NCBI RefSeq assembly: GCF_964355755.1
Contig: NC_092674.1
Location: 21,452,001-21,516,000 of the forward strand
Reading direction: 5' to 3'
Source: Antedon mediterranea
Taxonomy: Eukaryota > Animalia > Echinodermata
DNA: 64,000 nt
Position numbers and translations under genes: made by a program. Numbering within the stretch: position 1 is the first letter of the stretch; each line of letters begins with the position of its first letter. This document shows, one piece after another, positions 16,431-62,792 of the stretch. Below the pieces are notes generated by a model that was not told the DNA's origin, made no database searches, and saw only the letters and a program-made list of their open reading frames with translations.

Positions 16431-16685
16431 ACTATGTTGCAGTTGGATAAAGATGATCCTGCCACATGGGCAACAGAAAGGGGGAACATCCGTTTGGACC
16501 TATTGGTGGCGCTATACCAACTCATCATCGTCATGGGATTAACAACGCTAGACGATGAAACGCCAGTTGAGAATGAAACCTGATAGGTTTCAAAACGTAT
16601 TGTAAGTTCGCTTATATTATTTTTTAATTGTTCTAAAAGAAATTTTATTTAATACCTATTCCACAACCAGATGAAATTCTTCCAA

Positions 16686-16925
16686 AATAGGATTTAGTTT
16701 AGCACTTTTCCCTACTATACTCATTTTGGTTGTACTTGCGCACAGTGATAATAAATAGGATTTAGTTTAGCACTGTGCTCTAGTATACCCTTTTTGGTTA
16801 TACTTAAGCATAGTGATATTAAATAGGATTTAGTTTAGCACTTTTCGCTACTTTACTCATTTTAGTTGTAATTGAGCACAGTGATAATAAATAGAATTTA
16901 GTTTAGCACTGTGCGCTAGTATACC
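16686..16925. repeat. 68-bp tandem array, left part (continues at 44787)
   Basis: AGGATTTAG-type motif at 16689, 16757, 16825, 16893. Confidence 0.9.
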
Positions 16926-17118
16926 TGTTCTGAAGAACAACAAAAGAATAATGAGGGCGCTATTGTATAGTGTGTAAAAGGACGTTTTGGCGTGCCATAA
17001 AAAGAAAAAGAAAAGAAAAACAAATACCGACAGCGTGGTTGGTAAGAAGTGTGCAAATAAATGATAATACAAATCAGAAAGTTCTTGCGTATATATTATT
17101 ATGGGCCTTTCTTCAACA
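16926..17118 (+). repeat. BEL 5' LTR (193 bp)
   Basis: TGTT...AACA termini; near-identical to 44601-44786. Confidence 0.85.
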
Positions 17119-31934: not shown

Positions 31935-33779
31935 AAGAATGTTAAATATCAAGATACAGAAAGGTGTTATTATTAAGAAGCACAACTGTTTAAGTTTTAG
32001 TGTTAATAAGTTTAGAGTTGAATTATGTTAAATTAAACAGTGTAGAAGTTGATCATATAATTGTTATACATTGTTGGATAATGTTCAAATAAGGACAGTG
32101 ATGTTAAATGAGTTATCAACACGTTCAATGTGAATAATGTCAGTAAAAATAGTTTTTAATTTAGAAATGATGTTAAATAATTACAGTGAATATAATAGTC
32201 CGGTGGCAGGAGGGGGGAATCACCACCCGAAAGGGGACAAATTGCCATCCAACTTTTCTAGACTAAAATTTTCCGTAGATTACGAATATGGAAGGTAATC
32301 GATCAGGATAGGAAGCGTTTTCGAGATATAAGGGGTCAAAGTTCAAAATTGACCAATTACAACAATGTATTATGTATATGTATTATAACAAATTTATTGA
32401 AGCACAATTTGGTCTTTTATTACATTTTTATGATTATAAGTGTCTATTCAATCACCTTATGAAAAAAAAATCCTTTGTGATTGAGGGTCAAATGTCAATA
32501 TTGACCAATCATAGAACGTACCTATAAAACCAAATAAAAATTAATATTTAATAAAAATTGGATGTTTTGTCATCCTGTTAATCAATCATACGCAATGTAA
32601 AAGAGCGAACACATCATTTCATCAGTTTACATAAGGTCAATTTTATCAGTTGACATAAGGTCAAAGGTCAACATTTTAATACGCGTATTAGTTAACAAAT
32701 AAATGCAAAATTGTCCAAACTATGATATTGATGGTTTTACAAGTAATAAAATTATTTGATTAGTAAAGTTATGTTATTTCATTATAATACTGTATTTAAT
32801 CAAATCAGACTTCGATCAGGATAGGAAGCGAATAGGAAGAAATAAGGGGTCAAAGTTCAAAATTGACCAATTATAACAATGTATTATACATATGTATTAT
32901 AACCAATTTATTCAAGTTCAATTTTGTTTTTTAATACATTTGTATGGTTATAGGTATTGTATGGTGTTATTCAGTCGCCTTATAAAACAAATACTTTGCA
33001 AAGGTCAAATGTCAATATTGACCAATCACACAATTTGCATTTAAAACCAAATAAAAACTAACATTGAAGACAAAATGTTATGCTTTATCATTCTGTTAAG
33101 ACATCTATCAATAATACACTATCAAAAGAGCACATTTATCATTACACAAGTTGACATGGGTCAAAGGTCAACATGTGCATAAATGATATACTAAATAATG
33201 CAAAGTTATTCAAACTATGAGATCGATATTCATAAATGTAATCACGTTATTTGATCAGTGAAGTTATGGTATTTTTATATTTTTTCTAGTGCGATTATTT
33301 TAAATGTATTAATATAATACTGTAAAATAAATAATAAAATTAATATTATGACGATTAAAATGTTATGATGTTAAAATGTTGCGCTGACCTTCAATGATTT
33401 GCCACTATACAGTTGCATTTATTAGGGCTACAATATTCGTTTTTGGAAAATAAACTACTATTCATCAGAACCAGAGAATACCAATTCGTACAGGATAGGG
33501 CAGGGGAAGATCCAGGTGGCCAAACTCAATCCACAACTCACTACACAGACAGACCACAATTTTTATATAGTTTGGCCCATACAGGAAAGAGTTTCCTGTA
33601 TACAAAGGATTCTAAAATAACCTATATGGATTTGCCCGAATGAACCCTCTAAGGACCCTTTTGGGATCTCTATGTGGTGTGCTACATAAGGCCCTGTATT
33701 AGAAATTAGTATGGGGTAAATAGTTCATAGATGAACTATGGAATAAAACTAAATGTGCACCCTCAATCTTTAAATAACA

Positions 33780-34232
33780 TTTATGGATTTGCCAAATTGA
33801 ACCCAAGGGCCGGTCGTTCTCCATTGATGGACATTAAGCCCCATAATGGAAATATAAGGGGTGACACTGTGAGTTCATATAGACAGGCGCGGCCCATGAA
33901 TTAAGCTGCCTGTGCACTCCCGATCCTTAAGAAAAATGTATGGATTTGCCCAAATTAACCCAAGAGCCGGTCCTCCATGGACATTAAGCCCCATAATGGA
34001 AATATAATGGGTGACACTGTGGGTTTATATAGACAGGCAGAACCATGGAATAAAGCTGCCTGTGCACTCTCGATCCTTAAGGAAAACTTATGGATTTGCC
34101 CAAATTAACCCAAGGGCCGGTCCTCCATGGATGGACATTAAGCCCCATAATGGAAATATAATGGGTGACACTGTGGGTTTATATAGACAGGCACATGGAA
34201 TAAATCTGCCTGTGCACTCTCGATCCTTAAGG
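33780..34232. repeat. ~150-bp tandem repeat, left part
   Basis: TGGATTTGCC at 33784, 33941, 34091; the array resumes after the Gypsy. Confidence 0.85.
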
Positions 34233-34509
34233 CTAGTGTAACCCAGTCTACAAAAGTAGGCCAGTCAAAGAAGATGAAGGGTAACCCAGGCCACAAAAGT
34301 GTGCCAGTCCAAGGAAATTGCAACATTTACACATTCCTACTTCCTTACAAACAAAGAAAGTACTGACCAACATACTTTAAGTATGAGCTAATTATTTTAA
34401 GGATAAACTATTAGCTGATCAAACTCCAAATAAGGAAATAGGGCCACCATCATCTACCATTAGATAATGGTCCAGGAATGTATTTCGGAACAACAGGGTG
34501 GGGCCAAGA

Positions 34510-34546
34510 TATATAAAAAAGACTGCAGAGTTGGGAAAAATCACAA
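34510..34546 (+). promoter_or_regulatory. LTR core promoter: TATA box and initiator, predicted TSS 34543
   Basis: TATATAAAA at 34510 and TCAC at 34541-34544, with the A 31 nt after the TATAAAA starting at 34512. Confidence 0.65.
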
Positions 34547-34648
34547 CTCAACTCTAAATCTATTGAGAGCAGTCAGGTCCTCCCTGATACTTTTTGTACG
34601 TTCTGAAAGAAGTTGTATTTACACTTATTCCTTGCTCAACAAATTCAG

Positions 34649-35112
34649 GTAAGATAACCAACATAAACTTATTATTTTGTAGCGTAAGTAACATAGCTAA
34701 ATCCTTTAGTTGTACTTGTTAACTACATATAGGATACTACTTTTATGTTTATCATTGCTTGTTGTCCAACAATGAATTTATTATCTTAGATACAACTTGA
34801 TATATTGTAAATATGTACTATATGTTTGACCACCTTATATCGTATTGATTGTATGTTTATATGTAAGTTAGAGTGTAGTAATAAGACCCTGTCATTATAC
34901 TCACTAGGCTATGATTTATTAGCTAATCCTAAATTATCCTTGAATGAAGCCTGTATAGAGAATTCTGTAGTTATAGGAATTAAATACAAAAAGGCTACCG
35001 TAGTAGACAACTCAACTCTAAATCTATTGAGAGCAGTCAGGTCCTCCCTGATACTTTTTGTACGTTCTGAAAGAAGTTGTATTTACACTTATTCCTTGCT
35101 CAACAAATTCAG
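34649..35112 (+). other. Predicted 464-nt intron within the LTR containing the poly(A) signal
   Basis: CAG|GTAAGA donor at 34649, ATTAAA at 34979-34984, pyrimidine-rich ...TTCAG|G acceptor at 35112. Confidence 0.55.
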
Positions 35113-35494
35113 GTTGAGGGAAGATTGCCCAAGTTGGATTCTGTGTGTAAAGTCCACAGCCAGACGAGGGAATCGGTGGAGTGTATAAGCATCAAACTTC
35201 GAACGGGTTTACCACACCAAAAAGGGGACAAGCTCGACCACTGCCAGTTGTCAACAAACTTAAGTTTGACTGGTTATCTAAATCTTTAAGCATACTTAAT
35301 TATAAGTCGCATATTGTATAATTTGTATTACGATTTAGAATAATAACACATCTACTATAAGCCAACTATTGTGTACTCTTTTATTTATTATCTATGTGTG
35401 TCTAGTGCCACCGCCCCAATCAACTCGAACCCCGCTCACCTCAACCCTAAGTCGATAATCTTTTGTGTTGTGTGTAGAGTGGTTACATAAAAAC

Positions 35495-35512
35495 TGGCGC
35501 CCAATGTGGGGC
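35495..35512 (+). other. Primer-binding site, tRNA-Lys(CUU)
   Basis: TGGCGCCCAATGTGGGGC, one mismatch from the canonical TGGCGCCCAACGTGGGGC; 7 nt after the LTR. Confidence 0.9.
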
Positions 35513-35717
35513 TTGAAAAGGCACTAGTTAGATAATAAATTTATAATTATATACTATATTGCATATTTTTATCATTGTATTATATTTCATGCTTTTCAAT
35601 TTTACTTTATAATATTTTTGTACCCTTATATATCTAATTATTGTTTTACAATTTGTAATATTTGATCGTAATTTCACTTATTTTAATTTACAATTGTAAC
35701 TTCTTATTTTGTATACC

Positions 35718-37037
35718 ATGGATATATATGACTGGTGTATTAAACACAAGGTCGATCCTAGTCATGCTATTGCATTAAGGGGTGTATTGAAGGCCAATTA
35801 TAGTAACGATAGAATACCTAATGCATTCAAAGAAATAGATCGATCCCAGGTTGTTGAAGTTATAGATGAAACAGATATCACTTTTCAATTACTACTTTCG
35901 TTTTCCAAACCTGTAGTAGATCTAAATATCCCCACAACCATTGACCACACAGATAACGAAACCTGGACTATTATAAAATGGGATGGGAAGACCCCAGAAA
36001 AAGACACCTATATCCTACCCACAGATTTCCAGGGACAACTACAAAAATTTCTCTTAGAACATGGGAAAACCCTGAACGATCTTAGGCTAGATTCCATCCC
36101 CTCCGACACCAAAGAAGTAGTAGTAAAACACCTAATAGGCAACAACGTGCCCCGTACGGCCGGTGTTCGTCGGTTACGACAGTTTTCGGGACGGGTGCCA
36201 ATCCCTTCAAATGAGGTAGACTTTGAGACTTGGTCTCAACTAGTCCAACAACTTTTAAGGGATGATAGCTTATCACAGGCTGAACAAAAGAGCATCTTAA
36301 GTCAAAGTCTCTTTCCTCCAGCACTTAATATCCTAAATAAAGTGACTGATAAATCAACTGCTAGGGAATGCCATGATGTACTTAATGAGGTCTATGGTTT
36401 GGCAGTGGATGCAGATGACCTCTATACTCTATTTAGGGAGACATATCAGTCGGAAGGGGAACTGCCCTCTAAATTTTTAATGCGCCTAGATGAAAATCTA
36501 ACTAGGGCAACAAAGGCAGGGGCAGTTGGGGTAGCAAAGGCTGACCATATGAGACTAGCTCAATTTGTCCGTGGGCTAGTATATGACGAGATGCTATCAT
36601 CTACATTAAACCTGAAACAACGCAAATCAAATCCCCCTACTTATTTAACACTGATTAAAGAAGTTAGAAGTGAGGAAATTAATAGTAGGGCTAGGGCAGA
36701 AAAGCGAACACCTAAGGCAGTTAGTGCCAAGGCTGCGTTATGTAGCTATGAAGCCCTTAGCCATGAGGTAGAAGTTCTTAGAACTGAGCTACATCACCTC
36801 AAATCAACACCAAGCCCACCAGAGTCCACCCCTAACCCAAAAACGCGTTCTTCACCTGCGCCAAACACTAGGCCTAAAATATGTTATAATTGTGGCGAGG
36901 ATGGGCACCACATGAGGGGTTGTCCCAACCCAACTAATGCCACATTAGTACAGCAGAAATTGGTCAAACGGTTTAATCAGGCGGGAAACGGCAGAGGGCA
37001 TCCGGGAAGAAGGGACAACGGTCTGCCCCATCAGTAA
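35718..37037 (+). CDS. Gag, PNMA/Ma-antigen-like, with CCHC knuckle
   Basis: DWC..ALRGV N-terminus, LRQFSGRVPIPSNEVDFETW, YQSEGELPSKFLMRL, CYNCGEDGHHMRGC; uninterrupted ORF. Confidence 0.92.
   Translation: MDIYDWCIKHKVDPSHAIALRGVLKANYSNDRIPNAFKEIDRSQVVEVIDETDITFQLLLSFSKPVVDLNIPTTIDHTDNETWTIIKWDGKTPEKDTYILPTDFQGQLQKFLLEHGKTLNDLRLDSIPSDTKEVVVKHLIGNNVPRTAGVRRLRQFSGRVPIPSNEVDFETWSQLVQQLLRDDSLSQAEQKSILSQSLFPPALNILNKVTDKSTARECHDVLNEVYGLAVDADDLYTLFRETYQSEGELPSKFLMRLDENLTRATKAGAVGVAKADHMRLAQFVRGLVYDEMLSSTLNLKQRKSNPPTYLTLIKEVRSEEINSRARAEKRTPKAVSAKAALCSYEALSHEVEVLRTELHHLKSTPSPPESTPNPKTRSSPAPNTRPKICYNCGEDGHHMRGCPNPTNATLVQQKLVKRFNQAGNGRGHPGRRDNGLPHQ
36983..37027 (+). other. Programmed -1 ribosomal frameshift signal (G GGA AAC plus downstream stem)
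   Basis: Heptamer is in gag phase; the -1 frame is open through to LDTGSQV; GGCAGA (36990) can pair with TCTGCC (37022). Confidence 0.8.
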
Positions 37038-40000
37038 AAAGGTCCCAACAAAAGAGAAAGGGAAACACTGGAACAAAAACCTCCAATAATTTACTCCATA
37101 GTGCAATATCACAAACTAATAATCTTATAGGCGACCCTAGTGTCGTAACAATAATTGTTGACGGTCATATATGTAATGCAATGTTAGATACAGGCTCGCA
37201 GGTTACATGTATCAGTGAAGACTTTTATAAAGATAAATTAAGGGATAAGCCTATATACCCATTAACCGATTTAATAGTAATTGGTGCTGGCGGTCAGAAC
37301 GTACCTTATCTAGGTTATATAGAGGTCAATTTAACGTTTCCTAAAGTCCAGACGGGCTATACAAAACAATTCCCAACATTAGCTTTAGTGTGCCCCAAAT
37401 TAGGGAAGGGACTGTCTATGTTAATGGGCACCAACACCAGTATAGTTCGGGATCTGGCCAATGGCTGGACAAATACTAAGAAAAAGGGAAGGAAAGTAGG
37501 CCCCATACACTCTGCTTGGGCTGAAGTGTATAAAGAGGATAAGGCTAAGAAAGATAAACTAGGCCCCGTTAAAATATGTTCTCCTATGACAATACCTAGA
37601 GGAAAAATAGTAGAGGTAGAATGTGTTATAAAGAACACAGTACACCCTAACTTAGATGTGTTAATTGAAGCATCCCCGGATATCCCACTTCCTGGAGGGC
37701 TTTTAATCACACCCTTAATAGTCAAGTTAGAACATATGGGCCCAGTTAAACTTAGAGTTCCTTTGTCAAATTCTAGTAAAGAAATTAGGCTAAATAGAAA
37801 CTTTAAGATTGCCACTGCTTTCATCCCCCAGTCTATAACGCATCACAGTCCGGAAGTTCACTGTAACTCAAGTACGGCCTCAAACAATTTTAATTTTGAT
37901 AGCTCGCCAATTTCACATATAGATAAGGCGAAATTTATTAATTTACTTAATAATCATCCGAATGTTTTTTCAAAGAATGATTTAGATATAGGGAGAACTT
38001 CGGCTGTAAAACATAAAATACACCTAACTAATGACACCCCATTCCGTCAACCTTGTAGGAGGATACCCCCATCTGATTTCAATGATGCTAGGGACCACAT
38101 TCAAGATTTATTAAGGAAGAATATCATTAGAGAGTCCGAAAGCCAGTATAGTTCTCCTATAGTATTAGTCAGGAAAAAGAAGACTAACGAAATTCGATTA
38201 TGTATAGATTACAGACTTCTAAATTCTAGGACGGTTAGGGACCAATACAACGTCCCCAACATTGAAGATGCCCTTACAACCTTACGTGGTGCCAAATGGT
38301 TCTCATGTCTTGACCTCAAATCAGGCTATTACCAAATTGAAATGGATGAGGAGGATAAAGCAAAAACTGCATTTTGGTGCCCATTGGGATTCTATGAATT
38401 TAACCGAATGCCCCAAGGGATCACTAATGCCCCCGCCACCTTCCAGCGACTAATGGAGAAGTGCATGGGGGAGTTAACATTCTCCGACGTTCTAGTTTAT
38501 TTAGATGACTTACTAGTTTTTTCAACCACACTAGACGAACACCTAGCTAAGTTAGACAAAGTATTATCTAGGCTTGAAGAGTATGGCTTGAAACTAAATC
38601 CAGACAAGTGCAATTTTGCCCAAACTTCCATTAAGTGCTTGGGCCATGTCATTTCAGAGGATGGGGTAAGCACTGACCCAGATAAGGTAGAGGCTGTCAA
38701 ATCTTGGCCCCGCCCCTCAAATGTAAAAGAATTGAAATCATTTCTAGGTTTTGCTGGTTATTATCGACGATTTATACAGCATTATAGCCATCTTGCCAAA
38801 CCATTAAACCAACTTATGACTAAGTATGACCCAATACGTAAACGAGGTAAAACGTTCAAAAAACCTAAATCCAATACTCCCTCAGAAAGGCGCCCTAGTC
38901 CTAATACCCCATTTGGTACTAACTGGTCCGAATCATGTCAGGTGGCATTTGATGTACTAATAGATAACTTGTCTTCAGCCCCTATATTAGGATTCGCAGA
39001 CTACAATTCACCATTTATTCTACATACCGACGCTAGCACAAGCGGGTTAGGTGCAGCCCTATATCAAGAGATAAATGGGATAAAGAGGGTAATTGCCTAT
39101 GCTAGTCGTGGGTTATCCAAAAGTGAAGCCAATTATCCTGCTCATAAATTAGAGTTTCTTGCCCTAAAATGGGCGGTGACTGAGAAATTTACTGACTATC
39201 TTTATGGTCAACGATTTGTAATTTACACCGATAATAACCCCTTAACGTACGTGTTGACGACAGCTAAGCTTGACGCTACAGGTCAAAGGTGGCTTGCCGC
39301 CCTGGTCAATTACAACTTTGATATTAAATACAAAGCAGGTAGAAACAATCAAGATGCAGACGGTCTTAGTCGTCGCCCACATGACCCCCTTCCAATGACT
39401 TTGAATACGAACAATATCAAGAGAAAGCTGACGAAGTGTTAGGTAGAGTAAAATTTTCATCCTGTTCGTTCACAGCAGTCTGTAATGCTAAAATAGTTAA
39501 TAAGTCTACTATACCTAATGATACAACACCCTTAGTTGAGTCAGTTAGTGATTCTCCTGATGCAATCCCCGCCATCTATGATAACCCTATTAGGCCTATA
39601 GATGGGCAGTCAACCTTGCCTAATGTTACTGCAGCGGAGTGGGTAGAGCATCAACAACAAGACCCTAATATAAAACCTATTTTATAATAGTATATAACAA
39701 ACGGAAACCTACACAAGATGAACTCACAAAATTACCCGAGGAAACTAGGCTACTCCTGAGACAGTTTGATAAATTATTGGTAAAAGATAATATTCTATAC
39801 CGCCAATTTGTAAATAACATCGGAGCTATGCAATTGCAATTACTACTTCCAACCGCTTATAGAGATAAAGCATTTACTGGCTTACATGATGACATTGGTC
39901 ACCCTGGGATGGAACGGACCTTGGATCTTGCCCGATCCAGATTTTATTGGCCTCGTATGTCCTCCCAAATTGAAGATAAATGTAGGTGTTGTGAACGATG

Positions 40001-41525
40001 TGTCCGAAGAAAGGCCCGTGCTACCAAAGCAGCCCCCCTAGTTAGTGTCAGAACCACCATGCCTATGGAATTAATGTGTATTGACTTTCTGTCTATAGAA
40101 CCTGATTCTAAGGATACTAGAAATGTATTAGTTGTGACTGACCATTTCACTAGATATGCTATTGCTATCCCAACTAAGGACCAAAAAGCCCCCACAGTAG
40201 CAAAAGCTCTGTGGAATAATGTCTTTCAACATTATGGCTTTCCAAAACAATTACATTCAGATCAAGGCAGAGATTTCGAATCAAAAGTTATCCAAGATTT
40301 ATGTAAATATTTAGGAGTAAGAAAATCTCGTACAACCCCATACCATCCCCAGGGTAATGGTCAGGTAGAACGGTTTAACCAAACCCTGCTTAAAATGCTA
40401 GGCACTCTAGAAAACCAAAAGAAAGAACATTGGCGAGACCATGTTGCACCCTTAGTGCATGCATACAATTGTACTAAGAATGATGCTACGGGAATGTCCC
40501 CATATTATTTAATGTTTGGTAGAGAAGCCCGCCTCCCAATTGACATCCAACTAGGTATTGACCCAAATCAAAATGGTTCACTTTCTCCAAGGGGATATGC
40601 CGACAAATTACGACATCGCCTAGAAACAGCACACAAATTAGCCCAGGAAATGGCAACCAAGAAAGCTAATGCCAATAAAGCCCGATATGATAGTAAAGTG
40701 CGTGAATGCACTATTTGCAAGGGTGATAGGGTACTAGTAAAAAATGTGCGCTTAAGGGGTAAACATAAACTTGCTGATAGGTAGGAAGAAACTATTTATG
40801 TGGTTTTGGAACAAATAGGGGACAACCCTGTGTACAAGATAGAACCTGAAGATAGTGATGGCCCTACTAGAACATTGCATAGAAATATGCTACTCCCATG
40901 TAGGTTTGCTACAGCAAAGGAAACTCCCCCTAAAAGTGGTACTAAAGAAAAACAAAGACAGAGAAAGCCTGTCACTCGACAAGGGCACAAAACGCCTAAG
41001 TCAACTGTCCCACAGCCAGAACTATCTGGACATGAAACAAGTGATAGTGATTTAGATTATTACATTCCAAATTCAGTTCGCACACTTCAACAACCAACAG
41101 ATCCATCTATACCTCCTAATCTGGGTAATGACCAAAACGTGGCTCAAACTATTATTGACACCCCAATTGTTAACGAAATAGAACCTCAGATCAATGAGGA
41201 AGATGTAATAGTTAACCATGATATTAATGATTTCGAAGATGCTGTTATTCATAATTTAGACAACAATGATAATGTTAATATTGATAATGCTAATAATGAG
41301 CCTGATATTCAACCTGATGTCCACGAACCACAGGCTAATACAGATGATACCTTACGTCCTAAACGGCTAAGAACACAGCCAGAAAGGTTAGGTTATTTTG
41401 CTCCCGGCCAACAAGTTACATCAACTTCTAATATGGTGGTCCAAGTCATTGGGATGCAAAACCAAATGTTTGCTGATATGATGCAATCTCAATTATCAAT
41501 TTTAAGAGGCTCTAAGCCGAATTAA
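36983..41525 (+). pseudogene. Pol (PR-RT-RH-IN plus long acidic tail); two frameshifts (~39388, ~39680) and a TAG at 40782
   Basis: LDTGSQV, LCIDYR, YLDD, TDASTSGLGA, HDDIGHPG..CERC, SDQGRDFES, GQVERFN, RLRTQPERLGY. Confidence 0.93.
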
Positions 41526-41750
41526 TTTTATAATGTTATTTTTACTATATGTTTATATATACACGCCAATTTTGATTCCTTTTCAATGTAATATTTTTTT
41601 TTCACTGTATATTTTATGTATTAAGACAGGTGAATTACAATCAAAAACTAAATGGTGACGTAGTTAAGCACTACTTTTAATGTAAATGTTGGTTACCATT
41701 GAGTTTGTTGAGCGTCGTCCGGGGACGGACGAATATTTTGGCAGGGTGAG

Positions 41751-43001
41751 TGTAACCCAGGCTACAAAAGTTGGCCAGTCAAAGAAGATGAAGGGTAACC
41801 CAGGCCACAAAAGTGTGCCAGTCCAAGGAAATTGCAACATTTACACATTCCTACTTCCTTACAAACAAAGAAAGTACTGACCAACATACTTTAAGTATGA
41901 GCTAATTATTTTAAGGATAAACTATTAGCTGATCAAACTCCAAATAAGGAAATAGGGCCACCATCATCTACCATTAGATAATGGTCCAGGAATGTATTTC
42001 GGAACAACAGGGTGGGGCCAAGATATATAAAAAAGACTGCAGAGTTGGGAAAAATCACAACTCAACTCTAAATCTATTGAGAGCAGTCAGGTCCTCCCTG
42101 ATACTTTTTGTACGTTCTGAAAGAAGTTGTATTTACACTTATTCCTTGCTCAACAAATTCAGGTAAGATAACCAACATAAACTTATTATTTTGTAGCGTA
42201 AGTAACATAGCTAAATCCTTTAGTTGTACTTGTTAACTACATATAGGATACTACTTTTATGTTTATCATTGCTTGTTGTCCAACAATGAATTTATTATCT
42301 TAGATACAACTTGATATATTGTAAATATGTACTATATGTTTGACCACCTTATATCGTATTGATTGTATGTTTATATGTAAGTTAGAGTGTAGTAATAAGA
42401 CCCTGTCATTATACTCACTAGGCTATGATTTATTAGCTAATCCTAAATTATCCTTGAATGAAGCCTGTATAGAGAATTCTGTAGTTATAGGAATTAAATA
42501 CAAAAAGGCTACCGTAGTAGACAACTCAACTCTAAATCTATTGAGAGCAGTCAGGTCCTCCCTGATACTTTTTGTACGTTCTGAAAGAAGTTGTATTTAC
42601 ACTTATTCCTTGCTCAACAAATTCAGGTTGAGGGAAGATTGCCCAAGTTGGATTCTGTGTGTAAAGTCCACAGCCAGATGAGGGAATCGGTGGAGTGTAT
42701 AAGCATCAAACTTCGAACGGGTTTACCACACCAAAAAGGGGACAAGCTCGACCACTGCCAGTTGTCAACAAACTTAAGTTTGACTGGTTATCTAAATCTT
42801 TAAGCATACTTAATTATAAGTCGCATATTGTATAATTTGTATTACGATTTAGAATAATAACACATCTACTATAAGCCAACTATTGTGTACTCTTTTATTT
42901 ATTATCTATGTGTGTCTAGTGCCACCGCCCCAATCAACTCGAACCCCGCTCACCTCAACCCTAAGTCGATAATCTTTTGTGTTGTGTGTAGAGTGGTTAC
43001 A
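41751..43001 (+). repeat. Gypsy 3' LTR
   Basis: Preceded by purine-rich GGCAGGGTGAG and the hairpin TCGTCCGGGGACGGACGA. Confidence 0.97.
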
Positions 43002-43005
43002 CTAG

Positions 43006-43320
43006 GAACACTTATGGATTTACCCAATTTAACCCCCAAAGGCCGGTCCTCCATGGATGGACATTAAGCCCCATAATGGACATATAAGGGGTGACACTGT
43101 GGGTTCATAATAGACAGGCGGGGCCCATGGAATAAAGCTGCCTTGCACTCTCGATCCTTAAGTAACACTTATGGATTTGCCCAAATTAACCCAAGGGCCG
43201 GTCATCCATGGACATTAAGCCTCATAATGGAAATATAAGGGGTGACAATGTGTGTTTATATAGACAGGCACATGGAATAAAGCTGCCTGTGCACTCTCGA
43301 TCCTTAGGGAACCGATTTGG
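43006..43320. repeat. ~150-bp tandem repeat, right part
   Basis: Same unit as 33780-34232. Confidence 0.85.
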
Positions 43321-44600
43321 ATTTTGCCTAAAATGAAACAACAGCAGGTCATCTATTTAGACCCTTCTGTGGTTCTCTACTGTATGTTCAGTTCTACATT
43401 TGGCTCCTGTATCGGATCAATGCATTTGGCTACATAAGTTACTGTGTTAGAAATATATCGGGTAACTAAAACTGTAGGTTCCAATATTAAGCCATGGGAA
43501 AAGCCTGTCTGTGCACCCTCAATCCTTTTAAAAGGAACCCATATGGATTTGCCAAAATGAACCAAGGGTAACTTCTGAATTCTCTATGAGCCGTACATTC
43601 CGTTTATTGGAGATACATGGATACCTGATTGAAATTGCTCAAAAGAAAGACATTGTACTGTATAGTAATAGTATTATTCCCCTTCCACGCCTCTTTGAAT
43701 TAAATCCGCCCTGTAGGCTCTTATGTACAGGATTTCAAGGCAATAATCACACTTGTATTTTTCAAACAGTATAATCTATTAGATTGAATAAAAATATCTA
43801 TTATAAACAATTTGCCGTTAGAAATCTCTATGCCATGTCGTTATTTAGATGAGAAAAACAGGTCAAATGTTAAAATTACAGAAAAGTAGGTGTTTCAGTC
43901 ACTTTTTGAAAAAAATGTTGCATTATGGCAATTATAAACATATATATTGTGAACAATTTGACACCAAAATTGGCTCCTTACGACAAATATTTATTAATTT
44001 ATGTTTTTATAACCTTATTCAATTATGTCAAAGGTTAATAACCACACTTCCGGTCATTTTTCAAGCAATATCATCTGTTATACTGAATATAAATGTATAT
44101 CTTGGGAAAAATTGCTCCTATTTTTAATTCTCTCCGACCTGCCGTTACTTAGATATAGCAAAAAGAGGTCAAAGGTCAAAATTGCTAACAATGAGGTTTC
44201 CGGTCAATTTTTCAAAGAAAGTTCTGTTAGAGCTAATATAAACATATACATTGTGAACAATTTGACACCAAAATTATCTTACTACGTCCAGAATTTCCAG
44301 AGATATAGCATGTTTTTGTATTGGTCAATTTTGAACTTTGACCCCTTATATCTCAAAAACGCTTCCTATCCTGATCGATTACCTTCCATATTCGTAATCT
44401 ACGGAAAATTCTGGTCTAGAAAAGTTGGATGGCAATTTGTCCCCTTTCGGGTGGTGTATATCCCCCCTCCTGCCACCGGACTATAAGTGATAGGGTTTTT
44501 GGTAATAATGATGTTTCATGATATTTATGTTAAAAAGAAAAAGTTATTTGAGATTGTATTATGGGATCGACAAACAACTGTGTGTCGAGGAAGGGGAGAA

Positions 44601-44786
44601 TGTTCTGAAGAACAACAAAAGTATAATGAGGGCGCTATTGTATAGTGTGTAAAAGGCCGTTTTGGCGTGCCATAAAAAGAAAAAGAAAAGAAAAACAAAT
44701 ACCGACAGCGTGGTTGGAAAGAAGTGTGCAAATAAATGATAATAAAAATCAGAAAGTTCTTTCGTATATATTATTATGGGCCTTTC
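44601..44786 (+). repeat. BEL 3' LTR, last ~7 bp missing
   Basis: Matches 16926-17111; follows a polypurine tract. Confidence 0.85.
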
Positions 44787-45650
44787 CTTTTTGGTTGTAC
44801 TTGCGCACAGTGATAATAAACAGGATTTAGTTACACTGTGCTCTAGTATACCCATGTTGGTTGTACTTGCGCACAGTGATAATAAACAGGATTTAGTTAC
44901 ACTGTGCTCTAGTATACCCATTTTGATTGTACTTGCGCACAGATAATAAATAGGATTTAGTTAAGCACTTTTCGCTACTATACCCATTTTGTTTGTACTT
45001 GAGCATAGTGATAATAAACAGGATTTAGTTAGCACTGTGCTCTAGTATACCCATGTTGGTTGTACTTGCTCACAGTGATAATAAACAGGATTTAGTTACA
45101 CTATGCTCTAGTATTACCATGTTGGTTTTACTTGCGCACAGTGATGATAAAGAGGATTTAGTTTAGCACTTTTCCCTACTAAACCCATCTTGGTTGTACT
45201 TGAGCACAGTGATAATACATAGTATTTAGTTTAGCACTGTGCTCTTGTATACCTATTTTGGTTGTACTTGAGCAAAGTTATAATAAACAGGTTTTAGTTT
45301 AGCACTGTGCTCTAGTATACCAATTGTGGGTTGTACTTGAGCACAGTGATAGTACATATGATTTAGTTAATGTGCTCTAGTATACCCATTGTGGTTGTAC
45401 TTGAGCACAGTGATAATAAAAAGGATTTAGTTTAGCACTGTGTGCTACTATACCCATTTTGGTTGTACTTGAGCACAGTGATAATAAATAGGATTTGGTT
45501 TACCACTGTGCACTACTATACCCATTTTGTTGTACAGTTATAATAAATAGGATTTAGTTTAGCACTGTGCTTAAGTACACCCATGTTGGTTGTACTTGCG
45601 CATAGTGATAATAATAGGATTAAACCAGGGAGTCTAATAACAACTCCCTG
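44787..45650. repeat. 66-68-bp tandem array, right part, ending in a hairpin (HINE/Helentron-like end)
   Basis: About 12 units; stem CAGGGAGT (45626-45633) / ACTCCCTG (45643-45650). Confidence 0.8.
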
Positions 45651-62720: not shown

Positions 62721-62792
62721 GCCTCAGTGGTCTAATGGTTAGGGCAACTGCATATCAAGCAGACGGTCCGAGTTCGAGTCTCGGTTGGGGCG
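62721..62792 (+). tRNA. tRNA-like gene/pseudogene or SINE head, apparent anticodon ATC (Asp-like)
   Basis: Acceptor GCCTCAG/TTGGGGC, A box TGGTCTAATGG, T arm CCGAG-TTCGAGT-CTCGG, TTTTT at 62795; D and anticodon stems imperfect. Confidence 0.5.

Follow-up and report, generated by a model that had tools for sequence, protein, structure and literature searches.

We propose, with a probability of about one half, that the LTRs of a Gypsy retrotransposon of the crinoid Antedon mediterranea carry an intron that would be spliced at the 5' end of the RNA and rebuilt in each copying cycle, with the duplicated predicted exon 1 of the LTR serving as the landing site of the first strand transfer. What is observed directly is the repeat with its borders and motifs, and the recurrence of this unit in the distant element L026. 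The layout as a whole is real and recurrent, and with the predicted splicing it may represent a plausible new twist on reverse transcription.

The element and its surroundings

The window, i. e. the whole 64,000-nt stretch of A. mediterranea DNA that was analysed (NC_092674.1), contains a young, full-length Ty3/Gypsy LTR retrotransposon of the PNMA-gag clade at 34237-43001. All coordinates are positions in this window on the forward strand. The marks of the class are all present: two TG...CA LTRs, a target-site duplication, a primer-binding site, a polypurine tract and a PNMA-type Gag.

34233-34236, + strand: left target-site duplication, CTAG (sequence comparison)
34237-35487, + strand: 5' LTR, 1251 bp, TGTAACC...GGTTACA (LTR comparison)
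35495-35512, + strand: primer-binding site, TGGCGCCC..., 7 nt past the 5' LTR (sequence)
35718-37037, + strand: gag, 439 aa, PNMA domain (domain search, protein match)
36977-41525, + strand: pol (RT, RNase H, integrase), broken (domain search)
41740-41750, + strand: polypurine tract (sequence)
41751-43001, + strand: 3' LTR, 1251 bp (LTR comparison)
43002-43005, + strand: right target-site duplication, CTAG (sequence comparison)

The two LTRs differ by three mismatches (99.8% identity), and we take the primer-binding site to be of the tRNA-Lys type. The Gag protein matches an NCBI protein of the crinoid A. mediterranea without any difference, and the domains follow in the order PNMA Gag, RT, RNase H and integrase (PF14893, PF00078, PF17917, PF17921, PF00665). 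Among the best 120 of 4254 RT relatives, the names are mostly those of fish and amphibians, with one sea cucumber. In this copy, the reading frame of pol shifts near 39.4 kb and again near 39.7 kb and is interrupted by an in-frame stop near 40.8 kb; such damage (39390-40790) despite the 99.8% LTR identity may reflect mobilisation in trans, recent damage or assembly errors.

The insertion site is an array of tandem repeats of about 150 bp that continues on both sides (33600-34232, 43002-43570), and an inverted repeat pair (146 nt, 95%, 12 kb apart; 32212-32357 and 44320-44465) flanks the region. Elsewhere in the window, a 66-68-bp minisatellite occurs at two places (16685-16930 and 44740-45610), and ARAGORN reports a tRNA-Asp with the unusual anticodon ATC at 62721-62792, which is probably a pseudogene or part of a SINE.

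An inner repeat bordered by predicted transcription and splice signals

Each LTR of the element contains two exact copies of a 108-bp unit, 464 bp apart and separated by 356 bp of unique sequence, so that there are four copies in total. The original prediction had correctly recognised two identical copies per LTR, but its length of 106 bp has to be extended by the GT that follows CAG, and the 358 bp that it gave for the unique sequence were two too many. Its description of the borders proved accurate: copy 1 begins 31 nt after a TATA box and ends at CAG/GTAAGA, copy 2 begins 22 nt after ATTAAA, and TTTTTGT is found within copy 2 at 35055-35061.

34512-34518, + strand: TATA box TATAAAA, starting 31 nt before copy 1 (sequence)
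34543-34650, + strand: repeat copy 1 of the 5' LTR (exact repeat); predicted exon 1 is 34543-34648
34646-34654, + strand: predicted donor CAG/GTAAGA, U1 match 8/9, the best in the LTR
34649-35112, + strand: predicted GT-AG intron, 464 nt, comprising spacer and copy 2
34979-34984, + strand: ATTAAA, the sole AATAAA or ATTAAA of the LTR, ending 22 nt before copy 2
35006, + strand: G before copy 2, in both LTRs (35006, 42520), probably a change from the family majority (contig ends)
35007-35114, + strand: repeat copy 2 of the 5' LTR, predicted landing site of strong-stop DNA
35110-35112, + strand: predicted acceptor CAG at the end of copy 2 (sequence)
35113-35487, + strand: predicted exon 2, the U5 part of the LTR (sequence)
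35339-35400, + strand: possible second poly(A) region, weak, with AATAAT/AATAAC/TATAAG and then a U/GU-rich run (sequence, L018 alignment)
42057-42164, + strand: repeat copy 1 of the 3' LTR (exact repeat)
42521-42628, + strand: repeat copy 2 of the 3' LTR (exact repeat)

The elements that a GT-AG intron requires are thus all present in the LTR. Only two sites in the window LTR match U1 at 7/9 or better, and less than 1% of the LTR positions fall within 2 nt of a donor as good as the one that ends copy 1. The CAG acceptor, which had been called usable, is indeed present at 35112 but only moderate: its tract contains 62% pyrimidines, and two other AGs of the LTR reach 69%. The predicted intron contains eight ATGs in addition to ATTAAA, and there is no ATG in predicted exon 1, the start of which is the presumed transcription start site. 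RNA folding at both junctions revealed no significant structure (z -0.34 and -0.75; the donor region folded alone gave z -0.75). We also considered the AG before copy 2 as a former acceptor and rejected this idea: the preceding tract is poor (38% in the window, 31% in L016), and the majority of the family also seems to have C at this position.

According to the original prediction, the purpose of the intron is the excision of the poly(A) signal. ATTAAA does lie within the predicted intron, but the A+T-rich spacer is expected to contain 1.2 poly(A) hexamers by composition, and the chance of finding one 10-30 nt before copy 2 is P ~0.07; by itself, ATTAAA is not beyond chance. Moreover, L016 has neither AATAAA nor ATTAAA in the part of the LTR that is covered, spacer included. 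Since AATAAA follows copy 2 in L026, removal of the signal is at most the use that one family makes of the intron. As for the weak alternative region downstream, the LTR end gives a weak local alignment with the AATAAA-bearing LTR end of its close relative L018 (1 of 500 shuffles was equally good), and a global alignment of the two did not show homology.

The position of ATTAAA also bears on a different reading, i. e. an LTR with a short R as in MMTV or RSV. In this case, copy 2 would mark the start of the genomic RNA, and ATTAAA, about 20 nt further upstream, would act as a poly(A) signal in U3; copy 1 and its TATA box would form a second promoter upstream, the transcript of which would have an identical 5' end after splicing. 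The 22-nt spacing matches that of the MMTV AGUAAA, which lies about 20 nt upstream of the start according to the relevant section of PMC12789967, and ATTAAA overlaps TTAAATA, a weakly TATA-like sequence that precedes copy 2 by 27 nt. However, a U3 signal at this distance fits only if transcription starts at copy 2, and the consensus TATA box stands before copy 1. Moreover, nothing would then hold copy 1 identical to copy 2 or make it end at the donor, and in L026 AATAAA comes after copy 2. Hence, we regard a short R as improbable.

The repeat in public runs and in a second organism

Parts of the window LTR are present in eleven public runs, six of which were compared in detail; none of the runs is on record as RNA, which says nothing about expression. 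The run contigs were built with 31-letter words that are too short to span the 108-bp repeat, and none of those compared joins across the spacer. U3, repeat, spacer and downstream part were all found in contigs of independent runs. In a second organism (organism B, runs X6 and X7), one contig bridges U3 and copy 1 (X7, 34504-34609) and another one bridges spacer and copy 2 (X6, 34976-35086). Because of these bridging contigs, we conclude that the layout is neither an assembly artefact nor private to the window locus. Organism B also holds variants that are private to one copy: 34554T and 34569A in copy 1, joined to U3 (X7), and 35025A, 35027A and 35043G in copy 2, joined to the spacer (X6 and X7). 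Hence the two copies of an LTR, although free of mismatches in the window and in L026, are not always identical, which weakens the original interpretation.

Two further patterns are leads that we do not count as evidence. Run X10, the kind of which is not on record, provides four pieces, i. e. 34444-34590, two 67-nt alternatives for 35025-35091, and 35062-35488, the latter with 72 nt of another flank; there is no piece in the spacer or the leader. In X5, which is RNA only by guess, the depth of the repeat and of 35085-35487 is relatively higher as compared to X1: the ratios are 4.7 and 3.4 for these parts and 7.4-8.8 for U3, spacer, leader and flank, and contig depth cannot rank parts. Finally, in runs X1 and X7 a diverged copy of the repeat continues into unrelated sequence exactly at the donor position 34648.

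The base in front of copy 2

In the window element, C precedes copy 1 and G precedes copy 2 in both LTRs. Both in X1 and in X5, the two copies share one 109-nt contig (34542-34650); the contigs of the spacer extend to 35035, and that of U3 in X5 to 34571. Given a word length of 31 letters, these limits suggest that the majority of the family has C at 35006, as in front of copy 1. The trunk contig of the spacer stops at 35005 in organism B (X6, X7), from which we infer that base 35006 varies there, too. The window LTR differs from the X1 and X5 contigs at about 8 of 1251 positions, and the chance of a given base at a given site is therefore a few per thousand; this number has to be read for a single base that was noticed after the fact. 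In L026, the base in front of copy 2 is likewise G, and that in front of copy 1 is T.

The G at 35006 fits cap copying during a first strand transfer onto copy 2 and is thus a candidate footprint of this event. A '+1G' change in MLV was reportedly described by Kulpa et al. in 1997. In HIV-1, about 5% of the cycles involve cap copying, by which a G is added at the transfer junction immediately in front of the start site, as stated in the part of PMC12172438 that deals with it. A transfer at copy 2 would need an RNA 5' end that consists of the copy and exon 2, and such an end fits both splicing from copy 1 and a start at copy 2. The G is therefore explained equally well by a short R with a start site at copy 2, and this counts against the proposed rebuilding of an intron.

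Relatives and controls

For the comparison with relatives, 80 of 107 confirmed loci were taken from a metagenome scan; 83 loci were self-compared for inner repeats, and 32 of these were re-examined. Scans of viral contigs gave no usable relative, and the search of genome contigs gave two short loci without LTRs. Among about 12 relatives with a readable LTR, the repeat is clear in two (L026 and L016) and doubtful in one (L030).

L026 is a distant Gypsy element (43% RT identity) with a different primer site and no PNMA hit. Its LTR, collapsed to 537 bp, contains an 81-nt unit in two exact copies (0 mismatches). The unit starts at TCAGT, presumably an initiator-like motif, copy 1 ends at CAG/GTATGT, the sole donor of at least 7/9 in that LTR, and copy 2 runs directly into GAATAAA and then a GU-rich run. 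In L016 (57% RT identity), the repeat begins 85 nt before CCAG/GTAAGC, the exon end CCAG has a good pyrimidine tract, and copy 2 is visible over 55 identical nt up to the contig end. L030 has a decayed 68-nt repeat (94%) that stops 9 nt short of a donor and was left uncounted. The expectation that the repeat of related families extends from the start site to the donor is borne out fully in L026 and partly in L016, the start sites being presumed. Nine other relatives with a readable LTR have no repeat (L002, L003, L007, L009, L010, L011, L012, L021 and L024). With the start-to-donor unit of L026 and L016 at hand, the originally proposed intron at 34649-35112 is still a good reading, although its splicing is predicted.

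L002, the closest locus with LTR sequence, has a donor and no second copy within 1.4 kb. Five LTRs of the sister clade (L003, L007, L009, L010 and L011) have donor- and acceptor-like sites without the repeat, and an LTR intron can therefore apparently be kept without it. In these five LTRs, the motif behind the acceptor shows 60% as compared to 26% identity, a value that is partly circular as the sites were picked by their AG and motif pattern; only the pyrimidine in front and the tract (56-81%) are free of this bias. The elements with the repeat did not group in a single clade of a 32-row RT tree, in which L026 sits on a long branch. At least two changes are needed to explain their distribution, so that the trait either has an early origin and was lost many times, or arose repeatedly.

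Some further observations concern these LTRs. A G[CT]C[GA]GGTTTTT-like motif is shared by the sister-clade PNMA-Gypsy LTRs L003:1186, L007:5407, L009:1031, L010:5681, L011:6503 and L024:5623; in five of them it is preceded by YAG and a pyrimidine tract, with donor-like sites upstream. Between 35 and 130 nt past the motif, these LTRs contain TGGCGAGC, which duplicates the beginning of their own primer-binding site within the LTR. The idea that L024 is a precisely intron-less L010 was not supported: the alignments are no better than those of shuffles, except for one match to L007, and only the motif of L024 and L010 resembles. In L012 (5395-5425), polypurine tract and primer-binding site are only about 25 nt apart in a collapsed contig, which points to an extremely short LTR or an assembly collapse.

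None of 13 LTR pairs of distant Gypsy control loci contains an inner repeat of at least 40 nt. These data bear on the possibility of a recent functionless duplication in one family, the borders of which would match the motifs by chance. The LTRs are A+T-rich, composition alone would predict a poly(A) hexamer in the spacer, and most relatives lack the repeat. However, the chance that the end of a repeat meets such a donor is about 1% per element, the start-to-donor unit recurs in L026 and partly in L016, and the repeat is present in two organisms and in none of the controls. A chance duplication is thus improbable.

A model for a predicted intron that would be rebuilt in each cycle

The original prediction missed a problem of reverse transcription: splicing of the genomic RNA would deprive the offspring of the intron unless strong-stop DNA is transferred to copy 2. 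This transfer is the likely answer, and the repeat is therefore best read as an anchor for strand transfer. In the model, transcription would start at 34543, and the cap-proximal donor at 34649 would be joined to the CAG that closes copy 2. The spliced 5' end would then read copy plus exon 2 and be rid of the eight upstream ATGs and of ATTAAA. In the 3' LTR, cleavage of the RNA would precede splicing of the intron and would occur either just inside copy 2 after ATTAAA, as in the first version of this idea, to which we assign about half of the proposed reading, or further downstream as in L026. Strong-stop DNA made from the spliced 5' end would pair with copy 2 at the unspliced 3' end, and the transfer would restore the order U3-copy 1-spacer-copy 2-U5, with copy 2 being rewritten from the 5' copy 1 of the parent. 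The CAG that usually ends exons would double as the acceptor. With AATAAA directly adjoining the acceptor in L026, poly(A) factors would have to compete with splicing factors there, and a long R would result.

Transfer onto copy 2 would account for both borders of the repeat, the identity of the copies and the G before copy 2. In support of this reading, the repeat extends from 31 nt past TATAAAA to the best donor of the LTR, the unit appears to recur from start to donor in L026 and partly in L016 but in 0 of 13 controls, and the G before copy 2 but not before copy 1, probably a change from the family majority, fits. Several observations argue against it. The private variants of organism B are difficult to reconcile with strict rewriting, which allows only later mutations or the offspring of a parent with diverged LTRs. 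Five repeat-less sister-clade LTRs have intron-like sites, and the repeat is found in only two clear cases and one doubtful case among about 12 relatives, with at least two changes on the tree. Cleavage after ATTAAA would leave an R of at most about 13 nt as compared to 106 nt of homology in copy 1. Finally, the acceptor is moderate, and neither junction has a significant fold.

In an alternative reading, the repeat goes back to a single event in which DNA copied from a spliced transcript became attached to an unspliced 3' end, and it has been inherited in the ordinary way ever since. The unspliced genomic RNA would then carry both copies in a long R, and only the mRNA would be spliced, thereby losing the eight upstream ATGs and ATTAAA; the donor may suppress 5' polyadenylation via U1 as in foamy viruses. 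A single origin accounts for the repeat borders, for the copy-private haplotypes of organism B and for the intron-like segments that sister-clade LTRs keep without the repeat. On the other hand, it predicts a cap-derived G before copy 1, whereas the presumed change is before copy 2. In addition, the copies show no mismatch in the window, in L026 (0/81) or over the 55 nt seen in L016, and direct repeats in templates of reverse transcriptase tend to be deleted. Also in favour of a single origin, the suppression in foamy viruses needs U1 binding rather than splicing, as described in PMC3694450. All in all, we consider a single origin less likely than the rebuilding of the intron.

If an intron is indeed rebuilt in each cycle, the element could look like a spliced host mRNA and still pass its intron on, R would not need to be contiguous in the DNA, and there would be a new answer to the question how identical LTRs act differently at the two ends. 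The reading predicts junction reads, a flow of alleles from copy 1 to copy 2, and G before copy 2. In more general terms, and with a confidence slightly short of even odds, some animal Gypsy elements may replicate via a spliced genomic RNA and yet keep an intron in the LTR: a pre-spliced duplicate of exon 1 would be both R, rewritten in each cycle, and the acceptor. In the element studied here, the intron would also remove the sole canonical poly(A) signal, and the layout would span elements with as little as 43% RT identity.

Comparison with known systems

In freely accessible full texts, we found no description of an LTR intron that is rebuilt via a duplicated exon; a printed mention may exist elsewhere. 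A survey of LTR structures (PMC3601003) does not mention such a unit or use the word 'splice' in the sections concerned, and the relevant parts of PMC12786077 and PMC4558846 describe introns or LTR-driven splicing and no such repeat. Introns that are spliced from the genomic RNA of retroelements are normally lost for good, according to the part of PMC12786077 that addresses them; therefore, retroviruses package unspliced RNA and need special export routes.

With PNMA-gag Ty3/Gypsy elements of echinoderms, fish and amphibians, the window element shares the PNMA Gag, the order RT-RNase H-integrase, TG...CA LTRs and the 4-bp duplication. Unlike the window element, most of these relatives have no inner repeat, including the five with intron-like LTR segments.

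The closest parallel in poly(A) control is provided by foamy viruses: as in the window element, where the donor (34649) is upstream of ATTAAA (34979) in both LTRs, their donor lies upstream of the poly(A) signal in R in both LTRs, and the two LTRs must behave differently. In foamy viruses, suppression is independent of splicing and relies on U1 binding, with RNA structure masking the donor in the 3' LTR, and the relevant part of the report describes neither a duplicated exon nor an LTR acceptor (Schrom et al. 2013, PMC3694450). In contrast, the window LTR holds a complete GT-AG unit with a duplicated exon. The means by which retroviruses in general suppress 5' polyadenylation, as listed in the corresponding section of PMC12789967, are a signal in U3, cap proximity, structure, U1 binding and weak signals; the same source places the poly(A) signal of HTLV-1 in U3. 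A segment of the HTLV-1 LTR also undergoes donor-acceptor splicing in hybrid vector promoters and has been termed an 'LTR intron' (bioRxiv 10.1101/2023.01.28.526022). This is similar to the predicted donor and acceptor of the window element, both of which are inside the LTR segment, but the HTLV-1 intron was shown in gene vectors, and the passages on it describe no repeat that would rebuild the intron.

In HIV-1 cap copying, as stated in the part of PMC12172438 concerned, G replaces the base directly upstream of a start at a transfer junction, and the G at 35006 may be a similar replacement. Unlike in HIV-1, this G stands before copy 2, i. e. 464 nt past the start that is linked to the TATA box, and the comparison serves for the footprint only. 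With canonical U3-R-U5 LTRs, including those of MMTV and RSV, the element shares the class and, in the model, the transfer step. In a canonical LTR, however, R is contiguous at both RNA ends, whereas here the R at the 5' end would be made by splicing and the R at the 3' end would be its pre-spliced duplicate in the DNA. The present case contributes an animal lineage and a candidate footprint of the transfer.
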